From assembly GCF_054482595.1 (NCBI RefSeq), contig NZ_CM137008.1: 64,000 bases of DNA. One strand, written 5' to 3'. The notes beneath the pieces are model-generated. The model did not search any database. It saw nothing but the letters and a program-made list of their open reading frames with translations, and was not told where the DNA came from. Position numbers and translations under genes: made by a program. This document shows, one piece after another, positions 10,462 through 10,890 of the stretch; the stretch's first letter is position 1; each line of letters begins with the position of its first letter.

Positions 10462-10890
10462 TGCTATCAATTTCCTGCCTGTTTATACCCGGCCATTGCA
10501 AGGTGAAAACCCTGGGTACCGACGTCTTTAGATAAATCTTACGGTATAAATAGCACTTTTGCCTGATTTGAAATTGATACCTTTCTAATCGTCACCTGGA
10601 TGAAAATAATTCATTGATATTCAAAATTAATTTCCTACAGGAATGCAGAGGCGGCGGGAAGATATGCCCTTAATGCCACTGAAAAACCACATAATCTGTA
10701 CAGCAATAAAAGTCACGGCCTAATATGGCTAACAAACAATCAATTGTGATATAGTTCACAAAATTAATGAAACAAACAGAGTGTTTCATTTTTGTGTTCT
10801 GCAAGCCCCGCGATAGCCAGAGTGTACCACGCCTCCCGTGAACAACGCCGCGCTGTCCAGGGCATCGGCTCTTTTCAGAGGAATTGTTTG

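Follow-up and report, generated by a model that had tools for sequence, protein, structure and literature searches.

The perfect inverted repeat that lies just upstream of yjcB in the window (the whole 64-kb stretch of E. coli DNA analyzed here) is most likely a repressor binding site placed beside a CRP site and not a transcription terminator, and the repressor is possibly KdgR-like. In the reading that we consider fairly probable, the repeat, spanning +4 to +28, is a DNA operator with half-sites of the KdgR/PlaR type, and the extended -10 promoter to which it belongs is controlled by two repressors, one of which is CRP. The yjcB gene is uncharacterized, and the mechanism of its silencing now has a concrete promoter model consisting of an extended -10 element in a perfect CRP site, a conserved putative operator at +4 to +28, and upstream occupancy by MarA and SoxS.

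The window carries the soxS-pdeC-yjcB-ssb-uvrA region in reverse orientation with respect to K-12. The pdeC-yjcB spacer is 100% identical to that of K-12 MG1655 over the 420 bases compared, and by the K-12 annotation it is 429 bp long (10462 to 10890), not 420 bp as initially reported. The palindrome itself was present as described in the first-pass annotation: the sequence AATGAAACA-AACAGAG-TGTTTCATT at 10766 to 10790, followed by TTTGTG, is a perfect 9-bp inverted repeat, and it ends 100 nt upstream of the yjcB ATG at 10891, in agreement with the earlier estimate of ~100 bp. The features discussed below are collected in Table 1. Among the E. coli records listed from RefSeq, none has an annotated feature under the palindrome. 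The surrounding 101 nt are present at an identity of at least 95% in 5,422 of 5,426 complete genomes, and the variants found in E. coli, all of them uncompensated, are single-base changes affecting one or the other arm and the loss of 3 nt from the left arm. This loss was seen in strain NDM6 (NZ_CP083869.1), which has further deletions in the leader, and in E. coli T16R (NZ_CP046716.1) the pdeC-yjcB spacer is interrupted by IS1.

Table 1. Coordinates of yjcB and of sequence elements in its promoter region (positions in the window)
Feature	Position	Strand	Remarks
Predicted marbox GCAATAAAAGTCACG for the MarA peak	10703-10717	no strand	PMC5684230; located in the window sequence
Conserved upstream block ATGGCTAACAAA, consensus (A/C)TGG[CT][GT]AA[TC]AAA	10725-10736	no strand	-38 to -27
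Perfect CRP consensus TGTGATATAGTTCACA (TGTGA-TATAGT-TCACA)	10745-10760	no strand	Centre at -10.5 with respect to the yjcB start
Extended -10 TG-A-TATAGT of the sigma-70 yjcB promoter	10747-10755	+	PMC3946193; TG motif from the sequence
yjcB primary transcription start (A)	10763	+	PMC12987492; window mapping verified base by base
Left arm AATGAAACA, putative outer-left half-site	10766-10774	no strand	Core TGAAAC at 10768-10773
Canonical-register KdgR 21-mer AACAAACAGAGTGTTTCATTT	10771-10791	no strand	15/20 to consensus; right half 10/10, left half 5/10
Spacer (loop) AACAGAG	10775-10781	no strand	Position of a third box, (A)GAAACA, in most other genera (canonical KdgR register)
Right arm TGTTTCATT, putative right half-site	10782-10790	no strand	GTTTC at 10783-10787 invariant
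T-run TTTGTG	10791-10796	+	Flagged in the first-pass annotation; unconserved
yjcB coding sequence (93 aa, PF15940)	10891-11172	+	Gene served by the palindrome-bearing promoter

The palindrome is part of the yjcB leader. The primary yjcB start site derived from Cappable-seq, K-12 4275169 on the minus strand (PMC12987492), maps to 10763, so that the palindrome occupies +4 to +28 of the yjcB mRNA, and since it lies within the mRNA of yjcB itself, it is not the end of another transcript. It had been noted that no plus-strand gene is located upstream of the hairpin, and this is correct, but a plus-strand promoter and start site lie 3 nt before it. Independently, Shimada gave the yjcB promoter in 2014 as CTAACA-15-TATAGT (PMC3946193). 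The TATAGT hexamer (10750 to 10755) ends 7 nt before the mapped start site, and the TG at 10747 to 10748, read from the sequence, makes it an extended -10 element. Our promoter scan, which needs both hexamers, did not pick up this promoter.

The same hexamer forms the N6 of an exact TGTGA-N6-TCACA CRP consensus, the sole exact match in the window, and RNA polymerase and CRP use a single 16-bp element. The string GTGATA.AGTTCACA was invariant in all 78 Enterobacteriaceae yjcB promoters compared. The CRP site was already known as a prediction, being top-ranked by PhyloScan in 2007 (PMC1794230), and the level of yjcB mRNA is increased in a crp deletion (PMC13339887), which fits CRP occluding the -10 element. 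With its perfect, family-invariant consensus centred at -10.5 and its increased mRNA in the crp mutant, yjcB resembles those promoters that are repressed by CRP and have a CRP site overlapping the core promoter. It differs from other such promoters in that the -10 hexamer coincides with the N6 of the CRP consensus and in that a second, putative operator lies within 6 bp.

In the promoter model proposed here, yjcB would be driven by a sigma-70 extended -10 promoter (TG-n-TATAGT) that is held off by two repressors. cAMP-CRP bound on the -10 element would compete with RNA polymerase and thereby repress, and the arms TGAAAC ... GTTTCA would be the half-sites of a dimeric or tetrameric helix-turn-helix repressor that, positioned just past the start site, would block open-complex formation or promoter escape until released by a signal. 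The gene, silent under standard conditions, is induced strongly when cells are stressed (PMC12987492, PMC10746267); the inducing stresses include acid, several antibiotics, and oxidative regulators (PMC12987492, PMC5684230, PMC10746267), and at pH 4.4 yjcB ranks with the most strongly induced genes (PMC10746267). Such silence, together with the derepression in the crp mutant, fits tight repression at the promoter. According to the literature, activation under stress would be brought about by MarA, SoxS, or Rob: MarA ChIP-seq shows a peak in the yjcB<>yjcC spacer, and yjcB is among the SoxS ChIP-exo targets (PMC5684230, Table 1 therein). The upstream block was also highly conserved, with TGG invariant (78/78) and AA.AAA at least 94% conserved, and it showed no convincing marbox match at 10725 to 10736. 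It could be either a weak -35 element or the site of some other factor, and it appears too conserved to be explained by a weak -35 element of an extended -10 promoter.

By itself, the E. coli palindrome is mildly unusual and only marginally beyond chance: in first-order Markov simulations of the window, perfect inverted repeats of 9 bp with a loop of 3 to 10 were expected ~2.9 times per 64 kb, or ~0.02 times in this spacer. It gains its significance from comparison, because the arms are conserved in nearly all of the 78 distinct yjcB promoters and the flanking columns are close to random. These promoters were obtained from 80 yjcB loci, one per species, in Escherichia, Salmonella, Citrobacter, Enterobacter, Klebsiella, Raoultella, Kosakonia, Phytobacter, Trabulsiella, and other genera; as the species are related by descent, the sequence counts overstate the number of independent observations. 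Conservation was confined to a block extending from ~-38 to +28. In the right arm, GTTTC was identical in 78/78 promoters and was followed by A in 76, T in 65, and T in 68. The left box, TG.AAC, was intact (5/5) in 66/78, and its third base was A in 43, T in 31, and C in 3 promoters, with a right-arm partner that never changed. As a result, the mid-stem pair was unpaired in 34/78 promoters without any compensation. Paired cells amounted to 80.3%, against 79.8% in shuffled alignments, and the covariation score of 0.078 was reached by 43 of 500 shuffles; the compensatory changes typical of a structured RNA were thus not found. In promoters of the Enterobacter and Lelliottia type, no hairpin was predicted (-2.5 to -3.8 kcal/mol, z near 0), and both boxes were kept. 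The spacer of the palindrome varied freely within Escherichia. The invariant right arm, the uncompensated left-arm changes, and the lack of covariation argue that what is constrained is two inverted boxes as DNA sequence, not an RNA structure or a terminator. Together with the KdgR/PlaR half-site match described below, they bear out one of the three functions originally suggested for the element, namely, a palindromic protein-binding site, although a sequence-conserved palindrome could in principle also be recognized in the RNA by an RNA-binding protein.

In most genera, the alignment points to three boxes, designated here outer-left, inner-left, and right, of which the last two would be at the canonical KdgR spacing. 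The inner GAAAC, at N3 from the right box, was perfect in 31/78 promoters and matched at 4/5 positions in another 25/78, whereas only one or two of its five positions were matched in all Escherichia. Only the wide pair GAAAC-N9-GTTTC is left in Escherichia and some Kosakonia, whose inner box is degenerate; Escherichia would thus have retained the outer-left and right boxes alone, 9 bp apart. The spacing between these two boxes ranged from 9 to 11 across the promoters, and indels were seen in the interval between the two left boxes in 32/78 promoters and in the interval between the inner-left and right boxes in 2/78. Where the inner box was lost, in about two independent clades, the outer box was always an exact TGAAAC, which hints that the two left boxes may be able to substitute for each other. 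Salmonella enterica subsp. arizonae and Intestinirhabdus alba lack pdeC and have soxS as the immediate upstream neighbor of yjcB, on the same strand; despite the absence of pdeC, the CRP site and the palindrome are kept in both.

The half-sites match those of two IclR family proteins, KdgR, with the box consensus AAATGAAACAnTGTTTCATTT (as cited in PMC5559549), and PlaR, whose box ATnTGAAACnnnGTT(T)CAnTT is related to the KdgR box (PMC6958661). The left arm matched the left half of the KdgR consensus (AAATGAAACA) at 9/10 positions, and the right arm matched the right half (TGTTTCATTT) at 10/10. The arms AATGAAACA / TGTTTCATTT also match the PlaR box core, and the TGAAACA / TGTTTCA half-sites with A/T-rich flanks common to these boxes were present. 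The 21-mer in the canonical register had the top KdgR-consensus score in the window, and it reaches 15/20 because its right half is perfect. For reference, the boxes upstream of KdgR-regulated genes in K-12 scored 15 (kdgK), 17 (kdgT), and 17 and 19 (kduI). In most genera, the inner (A)GAAACA gives AACAGAAACAnTGTTTCATT, a full box with canonical spacing that scores 15 to 17 of 20, within the range of these K-12 boxes. Of 81 yjcB upstream regions, 55 had a best KdgR score of 15/20 or more, always at an offset of 26 to 27 from the start of the CRP site, and among ~2,150 control windows of 200 nt from the same loci, one genuine off-target reached 15.

The yjcB site resembles KdgR and PlaR boxes not only in its half-sites but also in its position at the promoter or immediately past it, where a repressor would be expected to bind. 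It adjoins a CRP site, as does the box at K-12 kdgT. The kdgT promoter (9551 to 9589 of the kdgT locus examined) has the KdgR box AAATAAAACAGCGTTTCAATT, 2 nt, and then the CRP-like sequence TGTGGTTTTGATCACT, the same pairing of a KdgR box and a CRP-type site as at yjcB but in the opposite order. There are, however, differences: (i) the GAAAC and GTTTC of the perfect E. coli arms are separated by N9 and not by the N3 of the inner box found in other genera, which places the arms 7 nt apart instead of 1; (ii) there is an additional direct left box; and (iii) the target is a stress-induced membrane protein of 93 aa and not a sugar-acid gene. Canonical KdgR binding is doubtful for Escherichia and some Kosakonia because of the 7-nt separation of the arms and the 5/10 match of the left half in the canonical register. 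We found no binding experiment, regulon list, or database link connecting KdgR or PlaR to yjcB, and the PlaR genomic SELEX paper (PMC6958661) does not mention yjcB, yjcC, or pdeC. None of the literature mentioning yjcB addresses the palindrome, and the putative operator is not described in the literature searched, which left out the Rodionov 2004 KdgR regulon paper. If true, the KdgR-like assignment would add an unexpected target to the sugar-acid regulon.

The resemblance to KdgR boxes may be coincidental, and a different regulator may read TG.AAC-N9-11-GTTTCA; we regard this as the foremost alternative, although clearly less probable than the KdgR/PlaR-type operator. The best-conserved pair of boxes is that of the outer-left (66/78) and right (78/78) boxes, which is also the sole pair in Escherichia and some Kosakonia, and its spacing of 9 to 11 fits no characterized KdgR site or KdgR-type box among those examined. 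In addition, the stresses that induce yjcB have no obvious link to hexuronate catabolism. On the other hand, we neither know of nor found an E. coli motif with N9-11 spacing, and in the 12 genera inspected, no regulator gene except soxS/soxR adjoins yjcB, its neighbors being only soxS/soxR, pdeC, or an unannotated 468-aa ORF. Furthermore, a different regulator leaves unexplained the inner box, which is at the exact KdgR spacing in 56/78 promoters.

The two spacings could also be reconciled in a composite three-box operator, an idea that we offer as somewhat more speculative still. Either left box (6 to 7 bp apart) would partner the invariant right box, and an IclR-type repressor with two spacing modes, be it KdgR/PlaR or another one, would act with the CRP site that doubles as the -10 element to link YjcB, a stress-induced small membrane protein, to the sensing of sugar acids or carbon sources; the narrow mode would have been given up for the wide one separately in Escherichia and in some Kosakonia. 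Three-box sites or an extra direct half-site, which also speak for the KdgR/PlaR-type reading, have been documented for the IclR family members PcaU, PobR, and HmgR (Suvorova and Gelfand 2021, PMC8222616). The yjcB element is similar to these sites in combining a palindrome with an extra half-site that is direct to one arm. It differs from them in that the extra box is only 6 to 7 bp from the inner box and overlaps it, and in that the extra box appears to have replaced the inner box in Escherichia. A promoter operator is an ordinary kind of element, here with an interesting three-box, two-spacing anatomy. If the KdgR-like assignment holds, it would be a natural case of an IclR-type operator whose half-sites can be spaced in alternative ways. 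Its wider significance is modest.

It is unlikely, though of some weight, that the element acts primarily as a 5'-terminal stem-loop of the yjcB mRNA, with 3 unpaired nucleotides and a 9-bp stem hindering 5'-end-dependent decay by RppH and RNase E and so stabilizing the message. Hairpins at the 5' end are known to stabilize the ompA mRNA. Given the start at 10763, the stem would be located at +4 to +28, and in Escherichia, Salmonella, Klebsiella, Raoultella, and Kosakonia it was both the minimum-energy and the centroid structure of the first 40 nt. At pH 4.4, the rise in yjcB ribosome footprints exceeds that in mRNA (7.7 versus 5.9 log2; PMC10746267), so some posttranscriptional control is possible. 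However, there were no compensatory changes, the right arm was invariant although the left arm had a mismatch in 34/78 promoters, and the boxes were kept in the Enterobacter and Lelliottia types, for which the hairpin was not predicted. A purely structural element would also not need the invariant GTTTCATT. Under the operator model, a secondary role of the 5' stem-loop in mRNA stability is possible in those lineages that form the hairpin.

The element had initially been described as an orphan terminator-like hairpin, possibly the 3' end of a short unannotated transcript or an attenuator in the yjcB leader. The plus-strand RNA hairpin had a folding energy of -6.9 kcal/mol (z = -1.08), and 30 of 200 shuffled sequences folded as well. 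Only 2 of the 9 stem pairs are G-C, and the three basal pairs are all A-U or U-A, so the stable G+C-rich stem of an intrinsic terminator is lacking. A terminator scan with a minimum of three G-C pairs did not call the palindrome on either strand but did call the strong yjcB/ssb terminator at 11178 to 11202, and an Rfam scan of 10000 to 11500 with E values of up to 10 yielded nothing at the palindrome. The U-run immediately after the stem is present in E. coli (TTTTTGTGTT) and other Escherichia and absent in most genera; the information content of the T-run columns was 0.07 to 0.78 bits in the 78 promoters, and at least five T residues in the 8 nt past the right arm were found in only 15 of 77 species. 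No 3' ends are mapped at K-12 4275130 to 4275169 in the Term-seq tables of Adams et al. 2021, which is weak evidence because yjcB was nearly silent in the conditions used; the ssb/yjcB terminator ends are included in the same table. Nor is a transcript known that could end here, the sole reported upstream start being the yjcB start 3 nt before the stem. Compared with intrinsic terminators, the yjcB palindrome therefore has an A-U-rich stem no more stable than shuffled sequence and has neither an upstream transcription unit, a conserved U-run, nor a mapped 3' end. A terminator, and with it a hidden small RNA, is not supported and was a false lead.

An attenuator differs from such a 3' end in that the location suits it. 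A promoter-proximal terminator made up of the Escherichia hairpin and UUUUUGUGUU would stop some transcripts at ~+30 to +38, so that a very short RNA is made and yjcB expression is lowered. As with known terminators and attenuators, a stem-loop and a U-rich stretch are found on the sense strand of the leader in Escherichia: in E. coli, E. albertii, and the Escherichia clades, the 9-bp stem is directly followed by the U-rich stretch, and the hairpin is within the yjcB leader. Term-seq libraries may also miss RNAs this short or a promoter this silent. The placement of the hairpin in the leader was therefore right, but its terminator features are weak and Escherichia specific, Enterobacter-type leaders are not predicted to form the hairpin, and no leader 3' end is seen by Term-seq. 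This makes attenuation very improbable. The hairpin and U-run of E. coli would instead be by-products of transcribing a palindromic operator with A/T-rich flanks. A minus-strand terminator was also considered and rejected; the fold on that strand (-11.9 kcal/mol, z -2.8) stems from a CACAAAA/TTTTGTG complementarity that is unconserved and partly overlaps a CRP half-site. The reported pdeC promoter hexamers (PMC3946193) are, as read from the sequence, ~250 bp away, so no minus-strand unit ends at the palindrome.

Several known regulators were compared with the site. Of these, CytR acting with CRP deserves mention, with two octamers, AATGAAAC and GTTTCATT, beside the CRP site. CytR is a LacI family repressor that tolerates variable half-site spacing, and CRP-CytR complexes have a centre-to-centre geometry similar to the 25.5 to 26 bp between the CRP centre and the palindrome centre. 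Each octamer is one mismatch from AATGCAAC, and PhyloScan puts yjcB among cdd, udp, and ycdZ (PMC1794230). Comparison with the cdd, udp, deo, and cytR promoters of K-12 nevertheless led us to reject CytR as very improbable, because the adjacent CRP site and the flexible spacing (9 to 11) are there but the core is not: TGCAA/TTGCA cores were found in three of the four CytR-regulated promoters compared (cdd GTTGCATA, udp TATGCAAC, deoP2 ATGCAAAC), whereas the right box of yjcB was GTTTC in 78/78 promoters and never GTTGC or TTGCA, its left box was TGCAAC in only 3/78, and a base suboptimal for CytR would have been held invariant across the family. No match to the MarA/SoxS/Rob marbox (AYnGCACnnWnnRYYAAAY) with fewer than 4 mismatches was obtained in 10600 to 10830, and none was centred on the palindrome; scans with the Cra and OmpR consensus sequences gave no convincing match. 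To our knowledge, the PhoP, TyrR, LysR-type T-N11-A, PadR, AgaR, and RstA motifs do not fit the palindrome either.

Other sequence elements were also identified in the vicinity. The leaders of Escherichia, Salmonella, Citrobacter, Klebsiella, and Raoultella share a conserved 5' untranslated region motif, GATAGCCAGAG (10812 to 10822 in the window), which is missing from the much shorter leaders of Enterobacter and Lelliottia. A TTG-initiated in-frame ORF at 10792 to 11172 would extend yjcB by 33 codons upstream, and longer YjcB forms of 106 to 159 aa are found in several database entries; with leaders of only ~60 nt in Enterobacter, the N-terminal extension is not conserved. At the other end of the gene, the Term-seq 3' ends at K-12 4274757/8 (plus strand) map to the bidirectional yjcB/ssb terminator, which is adjoined by a perfect AT-rich palindrome, TTAAAACAATA-N5-TATTGTTTTAA, at 11237 to 11263, just 3' of ssb. 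Finally, a 9.5-kb contig labeled Flavobacterium paronense CECT 8460 (NZ_JAUFQN010000013.1) contains yjcB and its promoter with 100% identity to E. coli and is probably E. coli contamination.
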